Of a stretch of 64,000 nucleotides of DNA, positions 1 through 32,929 are shown one piece after another. A model generated the notes under the pieces. It ran no database searches and was not told where the DNA came from. It saw nothing but the letters and a program-made list of their open reading frames with translations. A program made the translations under genes and the position numbers. Position 1 is the first letter of the stretch. The number at the start of each line of letters is the position of its first letter. Source of the DNA: a virus; IMG/VR virus record IMGVR_UViG_3300027896_000014, positions 81,244-145,243 of that record; one strand, given 5' to 3'.

Positions 1-628
1 CTTTCAATTTCTCTGGATCAGTTGTTGTTCCAGGAGGGAAAAAGTCTCCCTTCAATTCTTTTCGGCCTTCCTCACCTATATATTTTCCGAACGGAAGCTG
101 AGATTCTACCATTTCCAATGCGGTAGCTGGAATAGCAGCCAGATAGGGATGACGAGCAGCAAATGGAGAAGTGACAACTTTGGGTTCAACAACGGGAGGC
201 ACCTTGAGAGTCGGCCTTACTGGCTCATGAGAAGGGATGGGTTCCTCTTTCGGAAACCCCGACAAATCAACTCCTGGTTGTGCAGGTGTTTCACGTGCCA
301 CTTCAGCTGGCACTGGAGAAGGCTTCGGTCTCTCCATCGGTCTCATGAGATTCGGGTTAATCAGACCGGGAGGGGTGATGGGTGACACTGTTCGTTCCGG
401 GACAAGAGGGGTAGGGGACTTCTCAACAATCGGTTTAGGCAAGGCTTCCTGTACGGTAGGCTTTGCTTCGACACTCTTTTGAGGAGCGAGGTAGTTAATG
501 ATATCCTTGTGTGAGAATCCTGCTTTTATATGTTTTTGGAGGTCAAAATTTCTCGTCGAAGCAAGGTATTCTGCTATCTGCTCATCGGTTGCACCTTTAT
601 CTCGTGCCCACTGTATATCGTATGGCAT
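1..628 (-). CDS. Internal virion/ejection protein, N-terminal part (partial, runs off the window)
   Basis: ATG overlaps the stop of the 695-aa gene (TAATG); my translation MPYDIQWARDKGATDEQIAEYLASTRNFDLQKHIKAGFSHKDIINYL... stays open to position 1; Pro-rich. Confidence 0.75.
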   Translation of the reverse strand, partial: MPYDIQWARDKGATDEQIAEYLASTRNFDLQKHIKAGFSHKDIINYLAPQKSVEAKPTVQEALPKPIVEKSPTPLVPERTVSPITPPGLINPNLMRPMERPKPSPVPAEVARETPAQPGVDLSGFPKEEPIPSHEPVRPTLKVPPVVEPKVVTSPFAARHPYLAAIPATALEMVESQLPFGKYIGEEGRKELKGDFFPPGTTTDPEKLK

Positions 629-2718: not shown

Positions 2719-5589
2719 TTACCCTCCAGTCCTTTTCAGATACTGCTGGATGGTTTCTCCGGGTAAACGTGACGCAACTTCTCCCGCCTGCCCTTGCTCT
2801 CCCACTGGATCAATTTTGTTCGCATCAATTCCAATGCCTTTGAGAATTTCACGGGATTTTTGGGATAAAAGTCTAAAATCTTTTGGCTTTCCCATTCCTG
2901 TCTCATATTGTGACTGTAAGGCTCCCAATCTTGATCCCATAAGTTCAATCGAACCGTCAATAAAAGCCTTCCACATTGTAGGAGTTGCAGTCGAGGGGTC
3001 GGTAATGGTATCGGCCCACGCCTTTATTGCCGGATCTGTAGCTCCACTTCTTTTGAATATACCTGCCATTTCATCCTTAACTGCATTAAACTTTGTCTTC
3101 ACACCCGCCACTGTTCCTTGTCTTGCAACCAATCCAGGGGTTACAGGAAAATATTTAGCCAATAAATTTACTGCAGCATTGCCTGTTACCCAATTACTAT
3201 TGGCAAGATCTTTCTGGGCATTAACTAAAGAATTAATATGTCCAACCGCAGTATTTAGGCCCAATATATTTTTTGCAGCAGTCCCAGAAGTAAAATCAAT
3301 CCTCAATCTCTGACGGACCGGATATTGAGTAGAATCGAAACTTGGATCATACAAGGCCGCCCTTGCAATAATATTTTTCCATTGTGGCGACCGTAAGGCG
3401 AACGAACTTGGATATGGGATTTTATAATCCACTAAATTTTTAATCACTGCTGCATCACTGGAGCTAAGCCCTTCCAATGCTGCTTCATTCCTTTGTCCGG
3501 GAAGACCAGGCGGAATTTCTCCAATTTCTGGTACTGCTACTCCTCCGCTTTGAATATCTATCTTCCTTTTTTTCTCGGCATCCAGTGTTCTCTGCGCCAC
3601 AATGGCCTCCGCAGTTGGTTTTCCATCCGGCCCCTTCTCTCCAGCTTTTGCAATAAGACCTAATTCGGTAGGAGATGGAACTGGCCTTTCTGCTCTCTTT
3701 ATTTCTGCTTGTTTGTCTAAAATTTCCTGATAGGTAGGTCTTCTATCAATCCCCTGCCTTTTAAGATCTTCCACGACTGCTCCTTTTGCTAATTCAAATT
3801 CGGTTGGAGATACCGCTCTTCCTTGACCTCTAGCCTCAACCGCAGCAACTCTCTCTTCTGATCCAAAGATTTTTTCTGGTATTCCCGCACTAATCCCGGT
3901 TAGGCGTGCTAACTGTTCCGTGAGCATTGGAATGTTTTTTAATGCCTCATCTCGCTGTATCCTTGCTGTCTTGGGGTTCTGAGACAACCCAAACCCCTGG
4001 GCTATATTTTTGTATTGGTCAAGCGATTTCTGGATTGCATCTATCGAAGGTTTAGTCTCTTCTCTGGCAACATCCATGATGCGCTCTTCAGGATGGACAT
4101 CGTAGTAGGTTGGTTTTGGACCCAATGAAGCCAGAGCTTGCTCTCGTCTGGTTTTTGCCCCCCCCTCTAACGTTGGCCTTAATGTCTCCAATGCCTCTTC
4201 CTGGGTAGGACGAACCCATCCTTTAGGAGTTGTAATTCCACCTTGACCTTCTGCACCGCGTATGGAATAACGGGTTTCTCCAGAGGGAAGAACTTCTTTA
4301 TTAATATCAGAAAGATTTCCCGATATACCGCCCTCTACCGGTTTGGTGGGTTCAGTCCCTGCGATCGGTGTCTGTTCCACCTTTTGAGCCTTGGGAACAG
4401 TCACAGTTGGCACACGAGAAGAAGCAAGAGATTCTATCGGAAACGCTGTTTTTAGCAGTTCCGCACGTCTTTTGCGCTCCTCTTCCGAAAGACCTTCAAG
4501 AGGATCAGGAGAAACTGCTCCTCCCTCTTGCCTTGACAATAGTGGTGTCATGCCAGGAGCCCCCGATGCCGCTTTTAAACGCTCGTATAAATCTGGCTCC
4601 TGAGCAATTCCATACTTCTTATTGTAAGCAGCCAACTGATCGGAACGAAACACGGGGGATCTCGTATTCTCCCTAAATGGAGGAGGATTTAATCCCTCCG
4701 TAACAGCAGGGGGTGGCGGAGGTGGTGGCGTTGCCGTATCGGTATCCGCCTGATCCGCATTACGCTGAGGAGCGTATGAGGCTAAAGAAAGTGTGGATGT
4801 CAGTGGTAGAGGCTTCGGTTCTAACGACTCCAAATTAGAAACCCATGGCGAGACATGGATAGGAGTAGACTTTAATAATGATGTGTTACGTCCCGCTTCA
4901 ATTCCTTGTTGGGTGGAAGCTCCCAAATTTTCATAAGAGGTCTCTTTAAAAAGGCTTGGATTAACTTCTCCACCCTCTTGCTTCGGGACAAGTGGAATTG
5001 TTGATCCAGCTTCCGTAGGGGTTGTCGTTAATGTTTGCTTCCCTTCCGGGGCAAAAGAACTCAACCCTCCCTCCGATGGGATATATTTACCCCCCTCCCA
5101 CCTACCAGCTTTCATTCCGGGTCTATAGTATATTGATTGATCGCTGAAAGACGGGTGCCCTGGTAACTTATAGGTATCTGGTAAATGTTCCGTTATACTC
5201 CTATGCCCTTTTAGCCAAGCTCCTCGGGTGTCATAAAAGTGTCTCGGATCATCTGGGTTTGGATTAAGTCCCATATTCTTTGCACGCTCTGCATACCATC
5301 CCTGGAAATTCTGCTCCATTTCAGGTGTAAACAAAGATTTCCAGTCCGGGGGTTGCCCTCCAGGGCTTACTTCTCCCCCGTCTTGTCTTGATTCCAACGG
5401 TATGACATTACCTTTTTTTGCAGGGAAGTATACTCCAGGGGCCGTCACTACTTCCGGCGCCCTCTCGGCTATCGTATAACCATGTGTCGGCTTCTGCACT
5501 TTCGGAGATCTTGGCTCCTTCAGGATATCCGAGAGGATATCAACCAGCCTCACATTCGTCCGTTTGTGCCAATCCTGTGATAGTTCCAT
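2719..5589 (-). CDS. Internal virion/ejection protein (956 aa)
   Basis: Position; long low-complexity N-half with three (R/K)QxGGxV motifs; helical C-half. Confidence 0.65.
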   Translation of the reverse strand: MELSQDWHKRTNVRLVDILSDILKEPRSPKVQKPTHGYTIAERAPEVVTAPGVYFPAKKGNVIPLESRQDGGEVSPGGQPPDWKSLFTPEMEQNFQGWYAERAKNMGLNPNPDDPRHFYDTRGAWLKGHRSITEHLPDTYKLPGHPSFSDQSIYYRPGMKAGRWEGGKYIPSEGGLSSFAPEGKQTLTTTPTEAGSTIPLVPKQEGGEVNPSLFKETSYENLGASTQQGIEAGRNTSLLKSTPIHVSPWVSNLESLEPKPLPLTSTLSLASYAPQRNADQADTDTATPPPPPPPAVTEGLNPPPFRENTRSPVFRSDQLAAYNKKYGIAQEPDLYERLKAASGAPGMTPLLSRQEGGAVSPDPLEGLSEEERKRRAELLKTAFPIESLASSRVPTVTVPKAQKVEQTPIAGTEPTKPVEGGISGNLSDINKEVLPSGETRYSIRGAEGQGGITTPKGWVRPTQEEALETLRPTLEGGAKTRREQALASLGPKPTYYDVHPEERIMDVAREETKPSIDAIQKSLDQYKNIAQGFGLSQNPKTARIQRDEALKNIPMLTEQLARLTGISAGIPEKIFGSEERVAAVEARGQGRAVSPTEFELAKGAVVEDLKRQGIDRRPTYQEILDKQAEIKRAERPVPSPTELGLIAKAGEKGPDGKPTAEAIVAQRTLDAEKKRKIDIQSGGVAVPEIGEIPPGLPGQRNEAALEGLSSSDAAVIKNLVDYKIPYPSSFALRSPQWKNIIARAALYDPSFDSTQYPVRQRLRIDFTSGTAAKNILGLNTAVGHINSLVNAQKDLANSNWVTGNAAVNLLAKYFPVTPGLVARQGTVAGVKTKFNAVKDEMAGIFKRSGATDPAIKAWADTITDPSTATPTMWKAFIDGSIELMGSRLGALQSQYETGMGKPKDFRLLSQKSREILKGIGIDANKIDPVGEQGQAGEVASRLPGETIQQYLKRTGG

Positions 5590-5606: not shown

Positions 5607-7328
5607 CTATGTGCTGGATATGGTCTCAGTCGCACTCGCACTGTCGCTACGGCTCATTGATGCAGCCGCATGGATACTCGACAATGCACCGGCCACTTCT
5701 TGGGCAACGATGGCTCCCATAGCCTTGACAACCTCAATCCTTAATCCGGTGAGAGCTTCGTACTCGTTGATCTGGATTTCAGCATTTTTTTGATAGAGCC
5801 CTGCCCTCGAAATGGCAAGATTCGTTTGCGTCTTCAAGATCTCAATCGCAACGCTACTTAATGCCTGATATGCCTGAATATTAGCCCTGTATGCATCAAC
5901 TTCCGCATTAAAGGTCTTAACCAAGGCATCAATTCTGGCCGATTCTGCCTCAACCCCTACTCTAAACGCCGTTACTTCAGCCACATATGAATCCACAAGG
6001 GTTCTGGCTTCAGCTATCTTTACGTTTGAAACGGCTTGATACACTTTTATGGGAGCGTCTACCCTCGCTATCTCTGCATCGACCCCTACTCTGTACGCTC
6101 CCACCTCAGCTACGTATGTATCCACAAGGGTTCTGGCTTCAGCTATCTTTACGTTTGAAACGGCTTGATACACTTTTATGGGAGCGTCTACCCTCGCTAT
6201 CTCTGCATCGACCCCTACTCTGTACGCTCCCACCTCAGCTGTATAAATATCGACAGAATTCTTTGCTTCAGCTATCTTCACGTTTGAAACCACTTGATAA
6301 ATATCGGTCATAATTCGATATTTTCCGATTTCAATATTATAAACTTGAATTTTGGCCTCAACGGTCGCTCTCGAGGCCTCAAAAAGTCTCTGCTGAGTCG
6401 TTTGAAGGAAGTTCATCAAAATGCTTTCGAGTTGGGTAGCCTGAGCGATTGCTGACTGCCGAACCTGGATGGCAAGGTTTGACTCTTCAATTGCAATTTG
6501 GCCGCTTCTGTCATCATACGCATTTGCATATCTGATGTCCTCAGATTCAACTGCTGCCGATAAAGCTCCATCCGGCAAAGGTAAACCGCTCTTGGACCAC
6601 TCGGCACGTTTCTGGGCCAACATATCCTGATGGAGCAGTAAATCCCTTGCTCTCGCCCTATTCCACTTTGCGGTTTCGACAGATGGTCTATCTATGTCCG
6701 TCTGGACATCAGCTAATAAACGTGCCTTGAGAGCTGTCAGCAATGGTGATTCATACGTTACCGCAGCAGGATTGATGGGATCGGTTTGAACAACAAGGCC
6801 ACTGATGTCTGGAATGGCTAAGCCGCTGAGATCAATGGTTTTAAGATTACCTTTATCCGGGGGCAATCCAATGTTAAAAGTTATATCAGGAGCAGGCAGA
6901 TCAAGACTAAAAGTTTGTCTGACCGGAGGCGATCCAAAATTCATCGTGCTGTCAGGAACAGACAGATCAAGACTAATGGCTTGTCTGACCGGAGGCGATC
7001 CAATGTTCATCGCGCTATCAGGAACAGGCAGATCAAGACTAAAGGTTTGTATGACCGGAGGCGATCCAATGTTCATTGAGGTATCAGGTTTTGTAGGTGT
7101 CGTCTCGGTGAATGGAGTAATGGAATAATCGGCACCCTCAAGCGCGACGTTTGTATCAATTTGCTTGATTTGACCGGAGATGGTCGCAAGATTATTCAAG
7201 AGTCCTTCAGCCAAATTTCTTGCCTGCGTCACATAGTCTCGGGCCAGATCGAATTGTTTTTCAACCTCGACCATCGCCACTTCATAAATAGGGACACCGC
7301 CAACGGTGCCAGGGGTGCCATTAGACAT
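5607..7328 (-). CDS. Virion coiled-coil protein with 20-aa and 39-aa tandem repeats
   Basis: 573-aa ORF with visible repeats; lies between tail and ejection genes. Confidence 0.6.
   Translation of the reverse strand: MSNGTPGTVGGVPIYEVAMVEVEKQFDLARDYVTQARNLAEGLLNNLATISGQIKQIDTNVALEGADYSITPFTETTPTKPDTSMNIGSPPVIQTFSLDLPVPDSAMNIGSPPVRQAISLDLSVPDSTMNFGSPPVRQTFSLDLPAPDITFNIGLPPDKGNLKTIDLSGLAIPDISGLVVQTDPINPAAVTYESPLLTALKARLLADVQTDIDRPSVETAKWNRARARDLLLHQDMLAQKRAEWSKSGLPLPDGALSAAVESEDIRYANAYDDRSGQIAIEESNLAIQVRQSAIAQATQLESILMNFLQTTQQRLFEASRATVEAKIQVYNIEIGKYRIMTDIYQVVSNVKIAEAKNSVDIYTAEVGAYRVGVDAEIARVDAPIKVYQAVSNVKIAEARTLVDTYVAEVGAYRVGVDAEIARVDAPIKVYQAVSNVKIAEARTLVDSYVAEVTAFRVGVEAESARIDALVKTFNAEVDAYRANIQAYQALSSVAIEILKTQTNLAISRAGLYQKNAEIQINEYEALTGLRIEVVKAMGAIVAQEVAGALSSIHAAASMSRSDSASATETISST
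5930..6300. repeat. 117-bp (39-aa) coding tandem repeat, about 3 copies
   Basis: VYQAVSNVKIAEARTLVD.YVAEV.A.RVGV.AE.AR.DA units; two copies nearly identical at DNA level. Confidence 0.9.
6860..7090. repeat. 60-bp (20-aa) coding tandem repeat, 3-4 copies
   Basis: gaccggaggcgatccaa and cagatcaagactaa recur every 60 bp (MNIGSPPV.Q..SLDLP.PD). Confidence 0.9.
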
Positions 7329-7338
7329 TGTAGCCTCC

Positions 7339-7839
7339 TTATTTTAAACCCGTATCGGTTATTGTTTTTATTCCCATATCGGCCTTCATTCCACCTTGCC
7401 AATCTGGATTCGCTTCAGACATTCGCTGTACCATAAACATTTCTGATTTCTCCGTTTTAAACCCACATCCCATCGGTTTTCCTGTAAAAGGCCCAAATTC
7501 TTCGCATGAATACATCGTATGATACTTTCCTCCTTCTGAATCAGTACAAGATGGACATATAGATTTAAGTGATAATCCACCCTTACGTCCACATTGAGGA
7601 CAGTCCTTACGAGGGATAATAAATTCCCCAGTCTTTTCGTTCACCATTTCATGAGGTGCCGGCAATCTGGCCGTTTGCGCAGAATTTATCTGTTTTACGA
7701 AAACACCCAAAATCGGTGCGGTTTCATTAAAAAGAATCGTAATATTCTTTTCCTCTGGCAGTCCCTTAGCCTTTCGGATTTCTTTCGCCGCTTCAATCAC
7801 AATCTGTCTAATTTGATGATCACAAGCATCAAAAACCAT
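7339..7839 (-). CDS. Hypothetical Zn-finger protein
   Basis: CPQC, CPSC and further Cys; coupled to neighbours. Confidence 0.6.
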   Translation of the reverse strand: MVFDACDHQIRQIVIEAAKEIRKAKGLPEEKNITILFNETAPILGVFVKQINSAQTARLPAPHEMVNEKTGEFIIPRKDCPQCGRKGGLSLKSICPSCTDSEGGKYHTMYSCEEFGPFTGKPMGCGFKTEKSEMFMVQRMSEANPDWQGGMKADMGIKTITDTGLK

Positions 7840-21738: not shown

Positions 21739-22698
21739 TTACGAGCTGGAAATATAGCAACCTTTTACCTTACCAGCTGTCGCTGTAAGGGGCCAAACGA
21801 GTCCGAGGCCAATGACTCCGTACCAGGCCGCTGAATTTAATCGCCCATGATCCTGTCCGAAGTTGACCTGCACTCTGACCTCCGGCGTTTCCGCCTCGAT
21901 CATGGCTGCGAAGTCGTCTCCGAAGATGATCCCCTCACCAAGAACCGATCCTGTCCCCTTGTTGTTGGCGAGACAGATCGTATCCTTGATCTCGATACAC
22001 CGGATGCTCTCAATCTTTCCAACCTCGGAGTTGTGGAAGACATCCCCTTCACGGAGATATTGCTTCCAGGTTTCAAAGTTATCGTCATTCTTGACCCCCC
22101 TCATCGCCTTTGTGGCGAGCAACCCAATATAGTCATCACCCTCATAGGGATCGACGATATAGGTGTCAGAAAAGGCATCCCTAATTGCTCCCAGGTGAGC
22201 GATGTTTACGTTCACAAGAGCCGGTGTGTCGGGTGCTGCAACTGCCGAGAAGGCTCCACCAGTCAGAGATGTCGGTTGATAGACGAGGTAGGTGGTCTTC
22301 ATAACGGTTGCCGCAAGTCGGTCCAGAGCCTTTGTCATCTGCTTTCTGAGGGCCTTCTGAATCGGGTCCTGCGGGTCGAATTTTCCAAGTAACTGGCTCA
22401 TGTGGCTAAACGTCACCGCACGGCCATACTCTGCCACGGTAATCGCCGTGGTGGACAAAGCAAAGTCATCCACGGGGATCCGATCGTGCTCCGAAAGAGC
22501 AGCACTTGTGGGCTGGGTCAAAAGATCAGCCCGGGTAAGGGTTTGTGACTCGCCGCGTTTCTTCCCGAAGCCAGGTTCGGTCCTGACGAAATCCATGAAC
22601 TTGGACTCGACAATAGACTGTTCCCGAAGCTTCGCGCTCAAAGCATTATTCTTGTAGACGCCTGTGGGAGCACTGAACTCCCAGGTGAAGTCTGCCAT
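21739..22698 (-). CDS. Major capsid protein (N4-gp56-like)
   Basis: 319 aa after the scaffold; ITV.EYG..V, EVG.IE.IR.IE, FG.D, D.GR....AWYG. Confidence 0.85.
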   Translation of the reverse strand: MADFTWEFSAPTGVYKNNALSAKLREQSIVESKFMDFVRTEPGFGKKRGESQTLTRADLLTQPTSAALSEHDRIPVDDFALSTTAITVAEYGRAVTFSHMSQLLGKFDPQDPIQKALRKQMTKALDRLAATVMKTTYLVYQPTSLTGGAFSAVAAPDTPALVNVNIAHLGAIRDAFSDTYIVDPYEGDDYIGLLATKAMRGVKNDDNFETWKQYLREGDVFHNSEVGKIESIRCIEIKDTICLANNKGTGSVLGEGIIFGDDFAAMIEAETPEVRVQVNFGQDHGRLNSAAWYGVIGLGLVWPLTATAGKVKGCYISSS

Positions 22699-22711: not shown

Positions 22712-23746
22712 TTATGGTGAGTGACGGAGTTTCCTCCTTTCCAGAGCTGCTCGTTGAGCATCGCCCATCGTATGAGAGGCCTCCGGTTCTTTTTTGGTTG
22801 TTACCTTCGCACCGCGCCCGATAACTTCGAGATTCTCTTGATTCTCCTTTTCCTTACGGGCACGTTCCCTTTCCTCGCCTCTGAGTTCATCAACGAAGTC
22901 TTTGCATAACTTGGCGGTTTCTTTGATCTGGTCTTCCATAGGAAGTGATTTTGAGACGTCCGTCGAGAAGTCCCAGAACAGTCGAAGAATACGTTCCTTC
23001 TCCTTCGGACTGGTCTTGTCAGAAATCAATCCAGCCTCTTCCAGGGCAGTGTCAACAGCGGATATAACGGCCTCCTTGTTTCTCTTGGCTTCTTCACGCT
23101 CCTCGAATGCGAGATTGGCAATCTCGGTTTGTGCATCGGCCCAAACAAGGGCTACCTTTCCGTTATATTCCCCCATCTTCTTCTGGTAGTCGGCCCACTT
23201 GGTATCAAACTCCGGATCCTCTCGATCCTGTGGCGGTACGGGAGATGGTATGGCTGCGGCCTTGGCAATGGTATCATCGGCAATCTTCTGACGTTTCACA
23301 TCCCATGGGTTTTCGGCAGCGGCTGTGACCGGGGCTTTACTGGCGGCTTCGTCCACGCGCTTTTGAAGATCTGAAACAACGGTTTCCAGCTTCTTAGCCT
23401 TTGTGGTAGCCTCCGTCATCTTCTTTTTGGCTTCTTTGACAGCCTTCTCGGCGGCTGCTTGGTCCTTGTACTCGAGCTGGGTTTCTTCGTCTGTCTTTCC
23501 CTTGTCTTCACCTTCCACCTTCGCCAGCTCTTCAGCCGCTCGATCCTCCTCAGCCTTTTTCTGCCTTGCCTTTTTTTCCTCCACTTCCTTTTCGACCGCT
23601 TCTGCGCCTATTTCTCCGTGTTCGGGAGATCCCTTAAACTTGGCTTCGGACGAATCCTCACCGGGGCCCTTGCCAGTCGTGATCTCCTCCTCTTCCTCGT
23701 ACCCGTCGTCCAGATTCAAATCTTTTGCCGTCAATTGCTTTCCCAT
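22712..23746 (-). CDS. Scaffolding protein
   Basis: Acidic coiled-coil ORF directly upstream of the MCP; start moved to MGKQ after GGAGAGGGTG. Confidence 0.7.
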   Translation of the reverse strand: MGKQLTAKDLNLDDGYEEEEEITTGKGPGEDSSEAKFKGSPEHGEIGAEAVEKEVEEKKARQKKAEEDRAAEELAKVEGEDKGKTDEETQLEYKDQAAAEKAVKEAKKKMTEATTKAKKLETVVSDLQKRVDEAASKAPVTAAAENPWDVKRQKIADDTIAKAAAIPSPVPPQDREDPEFDTKWADYQKKMGEYNGKVALVWADAQTEIANLAFEEREEAKRNKEAVISAVDTALEEAGLISDKTSPKEKERILRLFWDFSTDVSKSLPMEDQIKETAKLCKDFVDELRGEERERARKEKENQENLEVIGRGAKVTTKKEPEASHTMGDAQRAALERRKLRHSP

Positions 23747-23863
23747 CGTTTTCACCCTCTCCAAGAATCCCTTTAAGGGGTTGGAGCCTTTCTTGTATTT
23801 CCAAGTGCGAATCCTTATACGCATTTGCGTATTCAGGGGCACTGTGGATGCTGTGTGGGCAAC

Positions 23864-24136: not shown

Positions 24137-24730
24137 ATGCTTACACTTAAAGGAAGGCAGCTCGGCGGCAGGGCCGCCAATAAAGTTTGTTACGAACGTG
24201 CCAAAGTACTGTATTACGCCTCTCCAAATCACTGCCAATACTGCGGTAAAATAATTCAAATAGTGAGAGTAATTCAAGAAGCTCGAAGAAAGAAATTTTG
24301 TAATAAGTCTTGTGTGGCTTCCTTTCAGCATGAGAAGTTTAGGAACCGCCCGATTGCCCCTAACCGCATTTGTCCAGATTGCGGAGGTAAAAAGGAAAAA
24401 GCGAGTAACAAAAGATGCTTGGCTTGTTACCGTCTCAGCCACCGTATGAGTCCAGAAAGAACCAAGGCATCTTTGATTTCTGGAAGGAAGACTTGGCAAT
24501 CCTTTAGAAACGCCATCTCCAAACACGCCCGATTGGTATTTCTTGAAGCCAATATTAAAAAGTCTTGCTATGTGTGCGACTATGACAAACATACGGACGT
24601 TGCCCATAATAAACGTGTCTCGGAGTTTCCGGACAGTGCTACGATAGCCGAAATAAATTCCTTGGATAACCTTTTTGCACTTTGCCCGAACCACCATTTC
24701 GAACATGATCATGGTCTCCTAAAACTTTAA
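24137..24730 (+). CDS. HNH endonuclease with Zn-finger repeats
   Basis: CQYCGK...KFCNKSC; CYVC....DVAH...N...N.FALCPNHH.EHD. Confidence 0.85.
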   Translation: MLTLKGRQLGGRAANKVCYERAKVLYYASPNHCQYCGKIIQIVRVIQEARRKKFCNKSCVASFQHEKFRNRPIAPNRICPDCGGKKEKASNKRCLACYRLSHRMSPERTKASLISGRKTWQSFRNAISKHARLVFLEANIKKSCYVCDYDKHTDVAHNKRVSEFPDSATIAEINSLDNLFALCPNHHFEHDHGLLKL

Positions 24731-24739
24731 TCCCGCAAT

Positions 24740-25096
24740 CTATTCTATATTTGGTATTTCCCTTGCCTGCCTTCCCAATCTTATCCGCGTCAACCTTTTG
24801 GCTGCCGCCTCTCCAATCTGGATATCTCGTCCAAGTTTATCAAGCATTCGAATGCATGTCTGAGTTCGAGGATTAGTATTCACAAATTCCTCTATTAGTT
24901 GCTGGAGTTCCTCTTCGACCATAGCCACAAAAAACTTTCCGGCCCTCGTCTTTAGCTTCTGTTCGGCCTCTATGCCAGCAGAGGCATCCGCTTCAAGCTG
25001 GCCCTCCAATAGTTTTTCTCTCTCTGTAGGACTACGATCTCTTGGCCTTCCACTTCTAATATCAACCGCCATCCCGCCAATGATGATATCGCTCAT
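24740..25096 (-). CDS. Hypothetical head-morphogenesis protein
   Basis: Helical 118 aa between portal and scaffold. Confidence 0.5.
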   Translation of the reverse strand: MSDIIIGGMAVDIRSGRPRDRSPTEREKLLEGQLEADASAGIEAEQKLKTRAGKFFVAMVEEELQQLIEEFVNTNPRTQTCIRMLDKLGRDIQIGEAAAKRLTRIRLGRQAREIPNIE

Positions 25097-25338
25097 TTCT
25101 TCCTCTTCTTGGTCGGTGCATACGAACTCAGAGACGATCCCTGACCGATTGATGGAAATTTGGCCTTTACCGCAGCTCTAACCCTACCCGCAACCGGTTT
25201 ACCAGAGGCGCGAGCCAATGCGTTCTTACCATGTGCAATATCAGGAATCGGATAGGACCCTGCCCCTGGAGCCTTGCTCGGTATTGCGAATTGACTCTTG
25301 GAAAGTCTTTTTCTTTCGGAATAACTTAGCTTTGCCAT
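25093..25338 (-). CDS. Small basic protein (DUF6582-like)
   Basis: L...ER..L..SQFAIP.....YPIPD.AH..NALAR. Confidence 0.65.
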   Translation of the reverse strand: MAKLSYSERKRLSKSQFAIPSKAPGAGSYPIPDIAHGKNALARASGKPVAGRVRAAVKAKFPSIGQGSSLSSYAPTKKRKK

Positions 25339-25364
25339 TTCATTCCTCCTGAGGAATATTGAAA

Positions 25365-25658
25365 TTAAACAGGAACTCGCCTCATCCTTTTTTTCGCCCT
25401 CTTTGCCTTCTTGCCTCCCGCCGGCATAAATCCCGCCAAAGGCGTACCCTTCATTTTCATAACCTTTGATCTCCCGGGAGAGACAGGCCCCCCTTTAGCC
25501 CTTGGAGTTAATGGAACATCTCTCCACGGACGTGGACCTATCCATGGACGAGCAACCCCGCCTTGTGCAACACGTTCTCCCTTGCCGTAGGGCACCTTTG
25601 GCTTAGGAGCGGTAATGCCTGCGGCCTCTTCCATTTTTTCAATATAGCTTTTCGCCAT
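25365..25658 (-). CDS. Small basic K/R/P/G-rich protein
   Basis: RBS; C-terminal KMKGTPLAGFMP plus basic tail. Confidence 0.65.
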   Translation of the reverse strand: MAKSYIEKMEEAAGITAPKPKVPYGKGERVAQGGVARPWIGPRPWRDVPLTPRAKGGPVSPGRSKVMKMKGTPLAGFMPAGGKKAKRAKKRMRRVPV

Positions 25659-25680
25659 CGTCTTTTCCCTTCACTTAAAA

Positions 25681-25929
25681 TTAGACTGCAAGCCTCTTCT
25701 GGCCCTTCTTCCCCCGCTTAGACTTGGGTGAAGGCATGAACGCAGAAAGCGGCCTTCCCTTCATCTTCAATGGAGACGTGGTTGCTCTCCTGGTTCCGGG
25801 TGGAGGTCCCATCCCGGGTGCCACAGGTGCCACGGGTGGAATTCCAGTCCTCGGTCCAGGTCCAACCATCTGTTTTGGCATTGACTTCATTTTCTTAGTA
25901 TCAAAAGGATCTCCTTTTCCTCTAGCCAT
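25681..25929 (-). CDS. Small basic K/P/G-rich protein
   Basis: RBS GGGAGG; C-terminal KMKGRPLSAFMP plus basic tail. Confidence 0.65.
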   Translation of the reverse strand: MARGKGDPFDTKKMKSMPKQMVGPGPRTGIPPVAPVAPGMGPPPGTRRATTSPLKMKGRPLSAFMPSPKSKRGKKGQKRLAV

Positions 25930-25931
25930 AA

Positions 25932-26141
25932 TTACCTCCCTTTCTTTTTTTTTGGTGTGAACGAGCTTAATGGAACTCCCCTTTGTTTTCGCCATCCACC
26001 TTTGGGAGTAATTCCATGCTCCTTCATGTTTAAAAGTCTCTCTTGTGCAAGAGCTTTTTTCTTGGTTGTACTCTTGCTTTTTACGCCCGAAGGCGTACTG
26101 ACTCTATACCCATCAATCTTTTTGACTCTAACTGGGCTCAT
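25932..26141 (-). CDS. Small basic protein
   Basis: YRV.TP.G.KSK.TTKKKA.AQ.RLL; C-terminal GVPLSSFTPKKKK. Confidence 0.65.
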   Translation of the reverse strand: MSPVRVKKIDGYRVSTPSGVKSKSTTKKKALAQERLLNMKEHGITPKGGWRKQRGVPLSSFTPKKKKGR

Positions 26142-26636
26142 CAAAAATCCTCCCTGTTTGATTTAGTTCCTTTACTTGTTGCCATAATTTTTCTTCAATG
26201 CCAGTATAGGTATTTTTGCTACTACCCTTCATAAATTTACCCTGACCATCTTTTAAAATAACTTTATTTTCAATCGCTTTTTTTCTAATATCGCAAAATT
26301 CTATAACCAATTGTGCCTGCTTTTTCTTTATCTTTAAATGGGGTTGTATCACTCTTAAAAAGTTCGATACTGTTTTATTCCCGTAAAATCCCCATCTATA
26401 TACAGGCTTATGATTATTATTTTGTGCTTACTTATTCCGTTACTTCCACCGAAAAAAATTCTAATAAAATCAACCGCCTCTGGTTGGGCTTGGGTAACTA
26501 CGACCATCGGCTTATAATTTTCAGTTATACTACCTCTACGTCTATTCTCTTTTTGCCTTCCCAATCCAACATATCCATCACTATCAATAACCCCAGCGAT
26601 GTATCCTAAGTCTTCAGGATTGATCTTTACTGGCAT
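26128..26636 (-). pseudogene. Single-motif LAGLIDADG homing endonuclease, frameshifted near 26425
   Basis: GYIAGVIDSDG motif; -1 frame continues KPVYRW...FLRVIQPHLKIKKKQAQL. Confidence 0.8.
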
Positions 26637-26639
26637 ATC

Positions 26640-26963
26640 TCACCTCGCTTGAAAATTCCTCACTCCAATATTTCCACGACTCACCAACCTCATCGGTCTC
26701 CAGATAGGTAATGACCGCACTTGCCCATCGGTGTTTCGCATCTTCATCACCCGGTCAAATTTTGGTTTCTCTTTGGACAGATTAGATAAATCCTCTTTTT
26801 CCTTTTCCCTTTGGAGCTGAGTAAGAGTAAGAAGCAAACGGTCCAGTTGATTATTGTTCGCCCCGTCCGTGCTTGTCGTGGAGCCGGCGCTCGGCAAATA
26901 AGTGGCCGTGGTCCGGTCCGATGTTACTATGTATAGAGGCACCATCTTCTTCCTCCCCTCCAT
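26640..26963 (-). CDS. Hypothetical protein
   Basis: ORF only; start uncertain. Confidence 0.35.
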   Translation of the reverse strand: MEGRKKMVPLYIVTSDRTTATYLPSAGSTTSTDGANNNQLDRLLLTLTQLQREKEKEDLSNLSKEKPKFDRVMKMRNTDGQVRSLPIWRPMRLVSRGNIGVRNFQAR

Positions 26964-26986
26964 TGGAGTATATTACTTGAAATACC

Positions 26987-27751
26987 TCACTTATAATAAA
27001 TCGTGACGTAGGCCGTGCCACCAATTGGGTAATAATGTGCTGTCACACCCCCGTCGTTCAAATTGGATGTGCCTTCTACAAACCCTCCAGATACCGTTGA
27101 CATCACGGTGACGTATCCCATGTCTGCCGATGATGCCGGGAGAGCTGATAGGGCTGCGATAGCAAGAGCTTCGGAGTCATAACCGGTCCCGTTGGCCGAT
27201 CCAGGGGTTACAGTTATTGTTCCGGCAGCAACGATTGAAAATCTGTAGATACCCCATTTGTTTTGAGGGATAGTCCCTACTGCCAGAGCAGTTCCGGCTG
27301 CCGCACCTTTCGAATATCCCGTTCCTGCAATATTGAAGTTAAAAGCACCATTCGCTACAGTCGTTGTCGGGCTCCCGATAGCCAGAGCGGTCCCTCCTGG
27401 TGCCCCAGCCAAGGTTAGAGTAACCACGCACCCCTCGAAGATTGGATAGTCAGCATCATTCGTCTCACCAGCTTCCCTATCCTTTAGCAAAGCAGGAGGT
27501 GAAATCTGATTTTGCGTTAAAGATGACTTAACATACATCGTGTTACCGTTTGGGTCGGCAACTTTGAATTCTGTCGCAACCGTATTTGCCCAGTTTGGGA
27601 TCTCGATCAGAGTTACGACCGCTTTCCCAGGAGATACCGAATAACTGGGAGGACCGACTCCCCCTTTGATGATAAAGTTTTTTGTGGTGTCAGTCGGAAC
27701 AAACACCAATGCGTGCCTTGGAATATCCCGAAGTCTTTTATTGGCGCCCAT
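26987..27751 (-). CDS. Putative virion structural protein
   Basis: Gly/Ala/Thr-rich beta protein with RBS. Confidence 0.55.
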   Translation of the reverse strand: MGANKRLRDIPRHALVFVPTDTTKNFIIKGGVGPPSYSVSPGKAVVTLIEIPNWANTVATEFKVADPNGNTMYVKSSLTQNQISPPALLKDREAGETNDADYPIFEGCVVTLTLAGAPGGTALAIGSPTTTVANGAFNFNIAGTGYSKGAAAGTALAVGTIPQNKWGIYRFSIVAAGTITVTPGSANGTGYDSEALAIAALSALPASSADMGYVTVMSTVSGGFVEGTSNLNDGGVTAHYYPIGGTAYVTIYYK

Positions 27752-27760
27752 TTTTGCCTC

Positions 27761-28120
27761 CTATTTTATTGAAGCCATACCCTGATTCTTCCCACCATAC
27801 CAATCTTGTTTTCCCCAAAATTGGTCGGCCCTTCCGCAACTAACTATGAACTCTAAAACGTTGGCGATATTGTGAGTAGCATCGGAGAGAAATTTAAACA
27901 GGATACAATGTGTTTTCTTCAAGTCTCCGAGAATCCTACAGATAATAAACCACTCGAACATCTCGTGGACCGCCACACCAATCTGTTTCAATTTCTCCTG
28001 GCCAGGAGTCCATATGTAAATGTCGCCTCCGGATGTCCACCAGCCCATTTCCTCACTGAGCCATGCCTCCTGATATTCGTCCTTGAAGTATTGATCTTGA
28101 TCGGTAAAGATGAATTTCAA
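27761..28120 (-). CDS. HExxE metal-binding (zincin-like) protein
   Basis: AVHEMFE...H..A...E. Confidence 0.5.
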   Translation of the reverse strand: MKFIFTDQDQYFKDEYQEAWLSEEMGWWTSGGDIYIWTPGQEKLKQIGVAVHEMFEWFIICRILGDLKKTHCILFKFLSDATHNIANVLEFIVSCGRADQFWGKQDWYGGKNQGMASIK

Positions 28121-28129
28121 GTTTCCCCC

Positions 28130-29548
28130 CTAAAACCTAAAGTCGTCTCCCTTCATGGCATTCACTTCTTTGATAATTTGAAGCACGTCCGTCTCGAACT
28201 TTGCAGGAAAGGAGCTATTGGCCATTTCGATCTGGGAAGCAATCTTACTGGCCGCATCTACTGCGGCTTTCGGAGTTTTCCCGTATCCCATCGCCGTCGC
28301 TACGACGTGATCACCCGGATCGAACCAATGGTCTCCTGCCTTTTGTACGATACGCCTGAATCCCATGTCTTTTCTTATTTCTTTCGGGAAATGAATCACT
28401 TCCCACGTCTTAATGTCATCGGTATAAACTCCGACCTGGGTGACATAGCCGGGCTCCACTTCCGCTCGGACGTTCTGACCGGCCGCAATCTTATAGGTAT
28501 ATTCTGGAAAGTTCTTTATGTATCTTGACTGAATCGCACCGCAGGGCCAGGCATCACGAGACGTTGGATCGTGGACTCTAACTTTCTTTCCGTCCCAAAA
28601 GAACTCAAAGCTGATATTGCCGTGATAACCGGATTTGATGAGAGAAGGCTTTATTTTGTTTAGGATATGCTCATCGATCCCATTCTCCTCCACCCAAACT
28701 CCGATTGTTCCCTCTCCTTTCACTTCTATCGTGTAGAGGAAAGGCCGGATATAATCCCTTCCATTGAAACCGACATCGACACCCAATTCTTTGCCTGGGC
28801 ATGATCGCTGAATCAAAATCTCAAGGTCCTCACGGAATGGCCCAAAACCGGCCTGTTCGAGCGCCACGGCCATCTGTACTCGATTTTTCACGCCCTTCCC
28901 TGTCTCTTTATTGCCTCTATACTCTCCAACTTTTGGGAAGAAGAGAGTCTTGCCATCGGTGTGTTTATCCATGTACTCAAAAGCCTCATCAAAACCATGG
29001 ACAACATCTCCATCGGGGACGCCGACGCCCATCTCTTGAAGCCGCTGCCATCCCTTCACACGGTTATTTTCATTCTCGGTCCACCAGAAGGAAGGACCAT
29101 AAACGATTTTCCCCTCATCACGCCAGATATCGGCATCCTTCCCGAAACAACAATCCGAGATATAAATAAAATCCTTTTGGGCAGCTTCCATCATGCTGTG
29201 GATCTTGTGAAGCCCCTTAAAGCCATATCCCGAGATTTGGTTCTCGATCGACGGGTAGGCTGCGGCACCGGCAATAAAGTAATACACTTCAAACTCCCTC
29301 ATGAGTGCCAGGGCGTGATCAATCCCTAAATTGGTGTCGATGAAGCCAACGGTCCGTGGCATTCCATGTTCCCGCTTAGGCATAGAAATAGCCTTGGTCG
29401 CTTTTGCCGTCTGATAATTGGCGATTTCTGCATAGGAATATCCCTCTTTGTGTGCCTCTTCGACCTTAAAACCCGTAAATCCAGCGAGATAAAAGGCTAT
29501 CTCCCGGTATGAATGACCCTCTTTTCTTTGGGCCTCGACATCGTACAT
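28130..29548 (-). CDS. PurD-like ATP-grasp ligase with ejection-protein-like N-terminal repeat
   Basis: VYGPS.....ENNR..G...L...GV.VP, F.EA.EY, F.K, ILIQ...PG.E.GV...FNG, GYHG.I, V.D.TSR.AWP. Confidence 0.7.
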   Translation of the reverse strand: MYDVEAQRKEGHSYREIAFYLAGFTGFKVEEAHKEGYSYAEIANYQTAKATKAISMPKREHGMPRTVGFIDTNLGIDHALALMREFEVYYFIAGAAAYPSIENQISGYGFKGLHKIHSMMEAAQKDFIYISDCCFGKDADIWRDEGKIVYGPSFWWTENENNRVKGWQRLQEMGVGVPDGDVVHGFDEAFEYMDKHTDGKTLFFPKVGEYRGNKETGKGVKNRVQMAVALEQAGFGPFREDLEILIQRSCPGKELGVDVGFNGRDYIRPFLYTIEVKGEGTIGVWVEENGIDEHILNKIKPSLIKSGYHGNISFEFFWDGKKVRVHDPTSRDAWPCGAIQSRYIKNFPEYTYKIAAGQNVRAEVEPGYVTQVGVYTDDIKTWEVIHFPKEIRKDMGFRRIVQKAGDHWFDPGDHVVATAMGYGKTPKAAVDAASKIASQIEMANSSFPAKFETDVLQIIKEVNAMKGDDFRF

Positions 29549-31356
29549 TATTGTCCCTCAAATGCGGAAAGGGGTCTACGCGTAGGTTCCCCTTCACCGG
29601 GGGCCAAAGCCCCGGGAACCAAACCAGCTCCACCGGCAGTCGGCGGAGGCGCCTGATCAAGTGCCTCTGCCTGGTCATCCGTCATAATGAAGTCCGGGTC
29701 ATGAAACCCGAACGCATTAACTTCGTGTTTTAGAAGCTTATACGGCTTAAAATACTTACCGAATGTGGAGCTTTCTGCCTGCTTAAGAAAGGCTTGATAC
29801 ATTTGAATAAGCTGACTATTCTTGATTGCGGCAGATATCCCCATGATCTTAATATCGCAATTGGCCTTCAACATCTCCTTGCGTTGTTCAATGGACATCT
29901 GAGCGAACTTTTGAGCATTCGGATTGTTTTTCATAACACGGGAAATACTGGGATCTGAGTATTCATTCCAGTTCAGGACCACTACCTCTAAAGCAGCTCT
30001 AATCGTATTGACCGCACCTTCTTCTATATCCTCACCTATTGAATCGAAGACTGTCATGGACTGACCGAGCAATATCTCAGCCTCTCCCTTTGTTTTTTGG
30101 CTTTTAGTTCCACGTTGGCCAGCTGCTAATTGAGTAAGCATTGAGGAAGCTTCCCGGCGTTGGTCCCAGTGTTGAAGCGTGGCCAGCGTTTCGTTGCTTG
30201 AGGGACTCGTGTAAACCTCCTTAACCACCGGTTGGCCAGGTGGCGCATCTTGCCTACGAAAGACCGTCTTACCAGGAAACATGGCAACATCCGTAGGGTC
30301 CTCGAGATCCATCCGGTTTAGTTCTCGAAGTTTATTGACCCGCCACGAGAGATCGTCGATATGGAGGCTCATTAAGTTGCAGCTATTAAGCCACAGAAGA
30401 AGAGAGGTCTCAATAACTCCGTGTCCCTCAAACGTAAATAAATCTGGAAGGGGGGAAAAAGATATGCCTGGCCATCGCATCGTCACGAAAGGATTTGGTT
30501 CAGGATTTCGGATCAAAACATCTCCTGCCACGGTAAACCTGGCATTATCGAGGAGAAGTTCTCCCGATTTATCCAAAATAACGCCCCAATGCTCGATCAA
30601 CCTCACGGCTTTTCTAAAACTGCTTCGTTGATAATATTGACCTTTCCTGCGGGCCCGTTTTTCCGCAGTTTCCTGGCCCCAGCTCGATTCATTGGCCGTG
30701 ACCTCATTCAACCTCACATACCGTCCACCGAGTTTTTTGACCTTCCATAAATCAAGCCACTCCACATGATCCCAGTAATCTCCCGACCATGGCTCCCGTG
30801 GCGATGCATCCGAATCCCGATAGATCTGCCATGGAGGAACGAGAGAAAAAACCAACCCCTTTCCTGGAACCCACCTCGGAATCATCTCATGGGATTGACC
30901 GATCGCAAAACCGAGTTCTGTTCCATCAGAAAACGCAGTATCTAGGTGGGCGTGTTGAGGATTGAACCAAAACTCAGAAGCATCTCTAAGGAAAGAGGCA
31001 ATCCATTTTTCATTCTCATCATCTGGATTCACCGCCTCGATTTTATACCAATCTGGCTGGCGAAGTGCTTTTCGGATAATCGCCACTCCCTGTTTAACCG
31101 TGGAGGTCATATCCCCAGTTGTCATTTTGGCCTGCCAATCTTCTTTCTCCGAATAATCAATATCTGCCTTGTAAGCCCTATAGCACTGATCCCAGAGATA
31201 TCTAACTTCTAAGTTGGCTTGCTCTGACTCCGTAATGCAGCTATGAGCGAAGTCAACAAATGTGTCAGGATCTTCGACACCATAAGCCGATGCTGCCTCT
31301 TCACGTTCCGCCAGCTCTTGATCATCCCACCCCTGGGTCCCTGCATCATTCGCCAT
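29548..31356 (-). CDS. Portal protein (podovirus type)
   Basis: 602 aa; W...YR.Y, V.PW.IY.D, (L/I).E.WG, G.G..E, T.GE..I pattern. Confidence 0.85.
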   Translation of the reverse strand: MANDAGTQGWDDQELAEREEAASAYGVEDPDTFVDFAHSCITESEQANLEVRYLWDQCYRAYKADIDYSEKEDWQAKMTTGDMTSTVKQGVAIIRKALRQPDWYKIEAVNPDDENEKWIASFLRDASEFWFNPQHAHLDTAFSDGTELGFAIGQSHEMIPRWVPGKGLVFSLVPPWQIYRDSDASPREPWSGDYWDHVEWLDLWKVKKLGGRYVRLNEVTANESSWGQETAEKRARRKGQYYQRSSFRKAVRLIEHWGVILDKSGELLLDNARFTVAGDVLIRNPEPNPFVTMRWPGISFSPLPDLFTFEGHGVIETSLLLWLNSCNLMSLHIDDLSWRVNKLRELNRMDLEDPTDVAMFPGKTVFRRQDAPPGQPVVKEVYTSPSSNETLATLQHWDQRREASSMLTQLAAGQRGTKSQKTKGEAEILLGQSMTVFDSIGEDIEEGAVNTIRAALEVVVLNWNEYSDPSISRVMKNNPNAQKFAQMSIEQRKEMLKANCDIKIMGISAAIKNSQLIQMYQAFLKQAESSTFGKYFKPYKLLKHEVNAFGFHDPDFIMTDDQAEALDQAPPPTAGGAGLVPGALAPGEGEPTRRPLSAFEGQ

Positions 31357-31467: not shown

Positions 31468-31710
31468 CTATCCTTTCAGATTAATTCTCTTCCTCAGTCC
31501 CTTTTCGTTTTTCTCGTAATCACTGATCCCTCCCTGATTTAGGTGAATGGTTACTGATCCCGTAAAACTACTTCCGATGATTCCGAGCATTGAGAGAGAA
31601 TTTACGATGTTCTGTTCGTATTCATCTCTCCCATTTTGAATTCTGTGATTTGTATACTCTAAACCAATTGGTTTGTCAAGCCTTTTTTTAATTGGGGTGG
31701 ATTTTACCAT
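31468..31710 (-). CDS. DUF2292/YezD-like small protein
   Basis: FTGSVTIHLNQG.I pattern; internal promoter TTGACA-17-TATACA at 31651-31679. Confidence 0.45.
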   Translation of the reverse strand: MVKSTPIKKRLDKPIGLEYTNHRIQNGRDEYEQNIVNSLSMLGIIGSSFTGSVTIHLNQGGISDYEKNEKGLRKRINLKG

Positions 31711-32170
31711 CGGGGTTCTATCCTATTTCAATGGATCTAATTGATTCTATCCTTCCAACTTCGCCATTAAAAGGTGACATGCTTCTTAAATATTTAGCAT
31801 CGGCAGTCTGTTCATATCTTCGCTTTGACTGCTCATAATAATATTTCACTTTAGCATAGCTTTGTCCTTTCGTAGCTCTCCAAATCTTTCTCGATACCAC
31901 CCATAGCTTGATCCAGCTCATGTTACCCCCTTTCAAACAGCATCCCTTCATCACCGGCATCCGGTTCATGGTTTGAAAGCTGAAAGTCTTTTCGTAACGT
32001 TTAATCCGATCTGCGAGTGACATCTTTGTGCCTAAACCTCCTGCCCTTGTAGGCCTTGCGGTCCCGTAACCGTCTCTCACGCATTAACTTCGTGAATGTT
32101 TTGGCCTCGGAGAGGCAACGACCCACATACTTTTCAGTCTCTCTTTGATTAGACATTTTGCCTCACTCTT

Positions 32171-32455
32171 TTACAACTTTACAATATTCATTGCGATAAA
32201 GGTCAACCCCGTGAACCGAAAAGTCAAGGTATTCGGATCAACCTGGAAGTTCGGAACGTAGGCACACGAATATTTCTTAACCATAGCTTCAAATTCTTCC
32301 TTACAGGCTTGAGACCGCTGCATATCCGAGAGCGCCCCTTCCACTCCCCGGCCTTCGACATTGATAATACCTTCCATGTTCTTACCCTCCTTTTTAATTA
32401 ATTTTAGATGCTTTTTCATTCTCGCATGTTTTCGCCTCTGCGCATTCCTTCCCAT
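32171..32455 (-). CDS. Hypothetical protein
   Basis: ORF with RBS; start uncertain. Confidence 0.45.
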   Translation of the reverse strand: MGRNAQRRKHARMKKHLKLIKKEGKNMEGIINVEGRGVEGALSDMQRSQACKEEFEAMVKKYSCAYVPNFQVDPNTLTFRFTGLTFIAMNIVKL

Positions 32456-32699
32456 TTTCCTTTGCCTCTCCAAAAATGTAAGCCCCACCGGTGGGACAGT
32501 CAGGATCAATTCTAACCACCATTCCATGTACTTCGAGCACCATTTTGTGGTTCCTTCCTTCGGCTCGGTTGACCTCGTTCAATAGGGTCTCATTAGCCAG
32601 AGGAGACAGATATACCCATTTGGGCGTAAGGCCCAAATCTTCCAGCTTTCGTTTCGCTGTTAGGATCGTGTCACGAATTGAAGTTGTCACCTTATGCAC
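32394..32699 (-). CDS. Hypothetical protein
   Basis: ORF with RBS. Confidence 0.5.
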   Translation of the reverse strand: MHKVTTSIRDTILTAKRKLEDLGLTPKWVYLSPLANETLLNEVNRAEGRNHKMVLEVHGMVVRIDPDCPTGGAYIFGEAKENGKECAEAKTCENEKASKIN

Positions 32700-32929
32700 C
32701 GATCACACCTTTTCATGCGTCCTCCATTTTTAGTCGGCCGTTAATGGAATAATTACTTTCATATGACTCGGCCATCCAAAAATAAGCCTCTTCCTAGAAT
32801 TGTACTCCCAAATACAGTCAGAATCTTCTATACGCTCCCATCCTTCAATCCTACGGGCATCTGCGTAAACCTCATCGAGGGAGCGCTTTCTCCTGCATAG
32901 ACGACCAAAGGAAATTCCGAGTCCGAAAC

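Follow-up and report, generated by a model that had tools for sequence, protein, structure and literature searches.

Short motifs on exchangeable C-terminal tails link small basic proteins of the head-gene region to a large disordered protein in an uncultured freshwater phage

The stretch of DNA analysed here (the window) is the right-hand 64 kb of the 145,243-bp record IMGVR_UViG_3300027896_000014, from an uncultured freshwater phage that CheckV rates as complete. Between its portal and scaffold genes lie four small genes whose strongly basic products, microproteins A to D, share a short motif (m1, core L[SA][SAG][FY]xP) near the C-terminus. Microprotein A carries a second motif (m2, PLxP[RK]xxGGxVxP), and both motifs recur in a 956-residue protein encoded elsewhere in the window. 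The feature formed by m1 and m2 is real, non-random, conserved and modular. We propose, with a probability of about 0.45, that m1 (and m2 in the proteins that have it) serves as a docking motif within a disordered, portable tail, which would tie the small basic proteins and the 956-residue protein to one phage-encoded head partner. An earlier note on this DNA had quoted copies of m1 in the four microproteins, at the end of the portal and in the 956-residue protein, and all of these were found in place.

Enrichment was measured against a background of 300 within-protein shuffles of the 92 window proteins. The pattern PL[SA]x[FY]xP was observed three times against 0.04 expected, and the six-residue core six times against 0.13. 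All six of the latter lay in A–D and the 956-residue protein, which agrees with the earlier expectation of a motif enriched over background. No further copy of the core was found in the rest of the genome (220 open reading frames, ORFs, over the whole 145 kb; the other 81 kb). In the genome as a whole (46,276 residues), m2 occurs four times where 0.13 would be expected: once in A and three times in the 956-residue protein. The truncated form PL[SA]x[FY] outside the microproteins (three observed, approximately 0.6 expected) is unremarkable by itself. An all-against-all blastp-short comparison, which was blind to the motifs, ranked the tails of A and B as the top match between different window genes (E 7e-7); the two are paralogous over their last 35–45 residues and are consequently not independent copies of the motif.

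In A–D, m1 stands 10–25 residues from the C-terminus. Its extended form is MKx[KR]GxxL[AS]x[FY]xP, with the upstream Met and Gly conserved, followed by a Lys/Arg-rich run. In the 21 family-A sequences with this tail the order is m2 (PLxPRAKGGPVSP), a spacer of about 10 residues, extended m1 and the Lys/Arg run. AlphaFold2 predicted A to be disordered (mean predicted local distance difference test score, pLDDT, of 60), with a short N-terminal helix at residues 5–12 as its sole secondary structure. Two familiar motif types were considered and rejected for these tails. An AT-hook is ruled out as the Arg position of the GRP core varies (T, R, V or S), and a reading of m2 as an SH3 ligand (PxxP) is ruled out as the second Pro is missing in two of the three copies in the 956-residue protein.

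In the 956-residue protein the three copies of m2 are interleaved with two copies of m1, so that this protein and A are linked by two independent motifs. The protein is largely disordered (Atlas model pLDDT 0.52), and only its gene position suggests an internal or ejection role. Its 1014-residue ortholog in G001, a complete relative with a portal 71% identical to that of the window, has an N-terminal half that cannot be aligned, yet it keeps two copies of m2 (PL[IV]PRQAGGxVDP) and one of m1 (KPLGGYAPK). Within the disordered region of the 956-residue protein, residues 95–171 (NPDDPRHFYD...HLPDTYKLPGHPSF) look folded and make up a separate small domain, with 39% identity to proteins in two unrelated viral contigs (L012 and L013).

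Conservation was followed in two groups of related loci, L001–L008, whose portals are 71–93% identical, and L016–L018, which were found via A. In both groups A, B and often C keep the motif. G001 has m1 in B, in the 1014-residue ortholog and in a protein that joins the A tail to a different N-domain; m2 occurs in that same A-tail protein and in the ortholog. A scan of the whole G001 proteome found the motifs in the same protein classes, and the sole extras were a segment of the major capsid protein (MCP), which fits the m1 pattern, and an unrelated 238-residue ORF, which fits the short GGxV pattern. The MCP segment, LL[GS][KR]FDPQDP, is conserved, folded and compatible with a loose m1 pattern across the relatives (in G001 the MCP is encoded at 31704–32795). 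Its likeness to m1 is probably a coincidence; it would be relevant if the motif bound the shell by mimicry of a strand or segment.

Within the tails, the ratio of nonsynonymous to synonymous differences (pN/pS) was 0.1–0.35, with pS up to 0.7, as expected of a module under purifying selection. Family A has 12 invariant positions in its last ~50 residues. Among eight orthologs of B, the invariant residues are K..G.PL..F.P, one Met and one Pro, while the Met/Gly/Pro-rich N-terminal part drifts. Short linear motifs are typically conserved in this way, inside disordered and unalignable sequence. Codons differ between the motif copies of the window (6–14 of 21 nucleotides identical), so that it is the protein sequence which is maintained, and recent gene conversion among these tails is ruled out.

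These observations support one part of the earlier proposal of a shared functional signal: the motif is conserved, constrained, the sole invariant stretch of B, and carried on a tail that is exchanged. The cleavage and enzyme-substrate roles that had been attached to it fared poorly, as described below. That m1 acts like a functional short linear signal, common to the small head-module proteins and the 956-residue protein, is supported but unproven. Conservation had also been expected in orthologous portals, and there it failed: portals 71–80% identical to that of the window end differently. The RPLSAFEGQ of the window aligns with AEMTAPEGQV in L002 and L005, and PLSAF was found only in the window and L001. 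It sits on a variable acidic tail rich in Gly, Ala and Pro, whose wider likeness to B is weak (E 0.07). Either the portal copy arose by chance, its tail being fast to evolve, or it is a mimic that this lineage acquired recently.

The chief novelty lies in the exchange of tails. The N-domain of A occurs with at least six different C-terminal tails. Type 1 is the module of m2, m1 and a Lys/Arg run. Type 2 is short and ends ...SPAKPL, ...STA[KQ]PL or ...ASPL; type 3 reads GNALRxAVMGSSxAxTRVA and then KKK; type 4 is GSPPF[ST]xAELKQGYRKV; type 5 is W[LM]K[IV]QDxL[KR]NI; and type 6 is Y[KQ]GEGGEDVxVNK, which recalls m2 and is often present in duplicate. For types 4 to 6 the genomic context was taken from related loci, with none recovered for type 5; types 4 and 6 were each seen in one short locus (L053 and L037), in which no second protein had that tail. 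Conversely, the type-1 tail is also found on other N-domains (proteins P0040 and P0184 and an L008 protein). In L008 the tail DNA is near-identical to that of L002 (pS 0.09), though the genomes are much more distant. The C tail is joined to a different N-domain in L003 and L017, and in L018 it is A that has the C-type variant, SSLSAYAP and then TKKK; FMP and YAP forms thus stand at one and the same position and are interchangeable.

Microprotein D shows such a junction directly. Its N-domain has a type-1 tail in the window and a type-3 tail in L019. Window positions 26029–26638 match L019 positions 6786–7397 with 79% DNA identity, and the match stops precisely at the junction with the two tails, type 1 and type 3. 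The shared cassette holds the remnant of a decayed LAGLIDADG gene and the first 37 codons of D, which suggests homing in which the flanking gene was co-converted, between phages whose head genes are unrelated. The decayed gene is itself split, into two ORFs in the window (26355–26636 and 26128–26352) and three in L019.

Within a genome, a tail type tends to be common to several small genes whose N-domains differ. Type 1 is shared by two to four small genes per genome in approximately nine loci; type 2 by four adjacent genes in L023 and by two or three genes in L020/L021/L052, L022 and L057; and type 3, in L019, by the orthologs of A and D. The MCP, portal, TerL and scaffold proteins of type 2, 3 and 6 loci gave no BLAST match to those of the window, so that tail type appears to follow the genome and head-gene set and not the N-domain. 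Such a pattern would be expected of an address tag for which each lineage has its own receptor. When the word index was searched with only the A tail, no new N-domains came up outside the clade.

As a separate observation, tails ending in a free PL (...SPAKPL, ...STAQPL, ...ASPL or ...SEPL) were present on two to four adjacent small proteins upstream of TerL in L020, L021, L022, L023, L052 and L057, loci of other phages with the A N-domain; they make up a tail family of their own. In the 66-kb genome with L023, no ORF of at least 300 residues ended in PL. One type-2 protein of L023 resembles DUF3008 but gives no Pfam match.

In the mechanism that we favour, m1 would be the hydrophobic core of a docking motif on the disordered C-terminal module. 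A–D and the disordered N-terminal half of the 956-residue protein would bind one common head partner, for which the candidates are the portal or core, the scaffold, the inner face of the MCP in the capsid interior, and the 118-residue protein encoded beside C. Binding would load or hold the tagged proteins in the particle, and the basic run might then contact DNA or an acidic surface. The tag would go with the head machinery, and N-terminal payload domains would swap tails between head-gene sets. The 118-residue protein adjoins the microprotein cluster in all type-1 loci that reach that far and is absent from the searched records of other tail types, most of which are incomplete; it is a candidate partner by co-occurrence only, and this co-occurrence is confounded by phylogeny. 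The scaffold is a candidate by analogy with that of P22. Complex prediction of the A tail with the MCP, the scaffold and the 118-residue protein (portal not included) gave a score of 0.00, which weighs neither way.

Several points weigh against a docking motif with a single head partner. The patterns were chosen post hoc, and the enrichment figures consequently overstate significance. All type-1 loci form one clade, and their conservation partly reflects shared ancestry. Sharing of tails within a genome could also be reached by duplication and recombination among neighbouring small genes. Both m1 copies of the 956-residue protein lack a basic tail and the upstream MKxKG, and the portal copy misfits a conserved system. 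Finally, the proposal depends on inferred steps, namely that the tails bind, to which partner, that the proteins enter the virion and that they act on DNA, and this too counts against it.

A wider form of the proposal is more doubtful and is offered tentatively. Podophages with unrelated head genes might use interchangeable, lineage-specific 'zip-code' tails to load common payload domains (A, D, DUF3008 and others) and a large, presumably ejected, disordered protein into the capsid, each tail being matched to the receptor of its lineage. DUF3008 (PF11450) proteins are found in the same gene cluster of the relatives L002 (2e-7) and L008 (1.5e-9). A 59-residue neighbour family ends ILKMSGxALxxFASTP and then KKKK; hhalign pairs this end with VMKMKGxxLAGFMP (P 4e-4 and 4e-3) in a match that spans only 18–20 columns at a probability of 9–35%. 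A–D themselves gave no match to PF11450 even at E 10, and a search for DUF3008 found no paper in the literature library covered.

Among the rival explanations, the one that survives best, although we consider it unlikely, makes the tail the working part of the protein and not an address. Here the L..F pair and the polybasic stretch would bind DNA, an anionic membrane after ejection, or a host hub protein. The net charges of +16 to +19 suit such a role, and the TPKKKK and SPKKSKR that directly follow the motif resemble SPKK DNA-binding units. The small T7 proteins gp6.7 and gp7.3, moreover, are ejected and act in the envelope channel. The alternative tails, however, are chemically diverse, from neutral (...SPAKPL) to acidic (GEGGEDVxVNK) to helix-like, so one shared physico-chemical job cannot explain the exchange pattern, and in the 956-residue protein and its ortholog m1 occurs without a basic tail. 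The host-hub version also fails to match the beta-clamp consensus QL[SD]LF, at position 1 (Pro, Ala, Ser or Gly, not Gln) and at position 4 (Gly, Ala or Ser, not hydrophobic as required).

Shared ancestry by itself is a distinctly less probable account. One mobile coding segment would have spread by duplication, recombination and homing co-conversion, and would be kept for solubility or charge with no common receptor. The paralogous A and B tails, the near-identical tail DNA of L008 and L002, the LAGLIDADG cassette that moves the N-terminus of D between phages, and the presence of several homing endonucleases within the microprotein gene block all fit such a history. Against it stand the specific conservation of G, L, F/Y and P while flanks and codons vary, and the recurrence of the motifs in the disordered region of the 956-residue protein, which has no homology to the tails and keeps them in a diverged ortholog.

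We give very little credence to the suggestion, raised earlier, that the motif marks substrates of the neighbouring ATP-grasp and HExxE proteins or of a maturation protease. In its favour, the 472-residue protein is ATP-grasp in fold, its gene and the portal stop codon overlap, and both the window and L001 (portal 93% identical) combine it with the PLSAF tail of the portal; this co-occurrence, however, represents a single lineage. An ATP-grasp gene follows the portal in these two only, and an HExxE gene in the window only. Neither gene was seen in the available DNA of the seven other motif-bearing relatives, of which L002, L003, L007 and L008 cover the stretch behind the portal and L016–L018 are shorter loci. 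Structurally, the 472-residue protein resembles GARS-type and not RimK-type or graspetide ligases (Atlas template modelling scores of 0.72–0.83 to GARS/biotin-carboxylase-like and T4_Y16D, PF26092, clusters; sequence match to the RimK structure only E 0.6). As for cleavage, no S78 (PF04586) or ClpP-type (PF00574) prohead protease was found in the complete genome. The search for S77 (PF03420) had no working control, and a divergent protease may be present.

Short peptides for capsid loading or docking are already known, in the T4 signal, the small core proteins of T7, and the tails of encapsulin cargo and HK97 proteins. The closest solved analogue is the T7 pair gp6.7 and gp7.3. Only short loops of them are resolved in the virion, where they contact the portal barrel, gp15 and the nozzle; the basic C-terminal residues K84 and K85 of gp7.3 reach the DNA, and on infection both proteins are ejected together with the core proteins (PMC11784390). 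They are 88–99 residues long and encoded next to the portal gene, compared with 69–97 residues between the portal and scaffold genes here, with A predicted to be disordered. The ...RKSAFGGKK end of gp6.7 is loosely like the ...LAGFMPAGGKK of A. No Pfam or PHROG match links A–D to DUF5476 or the gp7.3 family, and no homology was detectable. In T7, by contrast, no motif is common to several proteins, no tail exchange is known, and the proteins are far less basic; location in the virion is established for the T7 proteins only.

The T4 capsid-targeting sequence is a short, movable peptide that loads the unrelated basic proteins IPI–III into the prohead; it lies at the N-terminus, and the gp21 prohead protease cuts it off. 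The motif described here differs in being C-terminal (A–D) or internal (956-residue protein), in a genome where no prohead protease was found. In encapsulin cargo-loading peptides, the HK97 protease tail, and the C-termini of the 80alpha scaffold and of CpmB of the staphylococcal pathogenicity islands (SaPI), short C-terminal peptides of different proteins bind one site on an HK97-fold shell, and SaPI CpmB copies the tail of the 80alpha scaffold. Those tails have another consensus, and the scaffold of this phage lacks the motif at its end. What is new here, judged from comparative sequence data, is a C-terminal two-motif module common to microproteins and a large disordered protein, with whole tails exchanged in step with the head-gene set.

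How tailed phages choose their minor and internal head proteins is known for few models: the T4 targeting sequence, the scaffold-dependent loading of P22 and the T7 core stack. Comparative data alone give, for the present phages, a motif pair, a set of cargo proteins and a natural 'swap experiment' of tails across head-gene sets. If the wider, 'zip-code' form of the proposal is true, this would be a natural modular cargo-loading system, whose tags might serve to carry proteins of choice into phage heads. Presence of the microproteins in the virion and a protamine-like condensation of DNA are suggested only by composition, charge and gene position; if abundant in the virion, the microproteins would be candidate DNA-charge-neutralising proteins of a tailed phage. 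A literature search for protamine-like phage proteins found no tailed-phage case.

The genes and motifs are listed in Table 1. Nearly all genes of the region are on the minus strand. The start of the record matches positions 144991–145117 near its end, as a 127-bp direct repeat. Each of the four microprotein genes has a Shine–Dalgarno site 5–8 nt upstream of its ATG; that of B is AGGGAGG, which places the start at 25929 and not at 25995. The N-domain of C matches phrog_16160, and no Pfam or PHROGs match was found for A, B, D, the 956-residue protein or the 118-residue protein. A tblastn search with A against 50,697 phage records gave no match. Among sequencing runs, a single DNA run, probably of the source sample, was listed as containing the sequence, and no RNA run. 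In HMO-2011, the nearest cultured relative by portal (22% identity), the annotation shows no comparable cluster of small genes.

Table 1. Positions of the genes and motif copies discussed, in window coordinates (aa, amino acids).
Feature	Coordinates	Strand	Remarks
Portal	29548-31356	minus	First in transcription order; distant likeness to HMO-2011 and CRP roseophage portals
Portal partial copy PLSAF	29560-29574	minus	Near C-terminus (...RRPLSAFEGQ); lacks xP and basic tail
ATP-grasp protein, 472 aa	28130-29548	minus	Next after portal; gene overlaps portal stop codon
HExxE protein, 119 aa, then 254-aa protein		minus	After ATP-grasp gene
Conserved 107-aa protein	26640-26963	minus	Ahead of microprotein cluster
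Decayed LAGLIDADG gene		minus	Followed by D, B, A and C in transcription order
Cassette shared with L019	26029-26638	minus	LAGLIDADG remnant and first 37 codons of D
Microprotein D	25932-26141	minus	69 aa, net charge +17; ATG at 26141; m1 PLSSFTP 25953-25973, then KKKKGR
Microprotein B	25681-25929	minus	82 aa, net charge +17; Pro/Gly/Met-rich; m1 PLSAFMP 25732-25752, then basic tail
Microprotein A	25365-25658	minus	97 aa, net charge +19; N-domain EKMEEAAGI...WTGPRPW; m1 PLAGFMP 25422-25442
C-terminal module of A	25368-25517	minus	m2 VPLTPRAKGGPVSP at 25476-25517, m1, Lys/Arg tail
Microprotein C	25093-25338	minus	81 aa, net charge +16; m1 variant LSSYAP 25114-25131, then TKKRKK
Conserved helical protein, 118 aa	24740-25096	minus	Directly downstream of C; ATGA start/stop overlap
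HNH gene	24137-24730	plus	Between 118-aa and scaffold genes
Scaffold	22712-23761 and upstream		After HNH gene
MCP	21739-22698		N4-gp56 family capsid protein, PF25209
956-aa protein	2719-5589	minus	Some 20 kb beyond the MCP, within the tail and presumed ejection genes
m1 in 956-aa protein	5047-5064; 4768-4785	minus	LSSFAP; LASYAP
m2 in 956-aa protein	5359-5403; 4957-4998; 4507-4545	minus	

Some further observations concern the neighbouring genes. Behind the portal, in place of the ATP-grasp gene, L002 (12680–13273) and L008 (12687–13391) encode a 197–234-residue protein with a long SPSxSPS repeat tail. The ATP-grasp protein of the window starts with two GxSYxEIAxY-like units (29412–29548), and a 695-residue protein (628–2715) starts with a similar unit, ...AGFSEDEISQH. 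In L008 (16483–17574) the MCP is a 363-residue ORF that breaks off after ...AAWYGV and is followed by unrelated small ORFs, which suggests that the gene is interrupted by an intron or a homing-endonuclease insertion. The 107-residue protein has the core ...KFDRVMKMRNTDG...GRDNIG.RNF and is kept in type-1 loci and in one type-2 locus (L024). It also contains VMKMRNT, which is similar to the VMKMKGT that immediately precedes m1, a likeness that may be due to chance.

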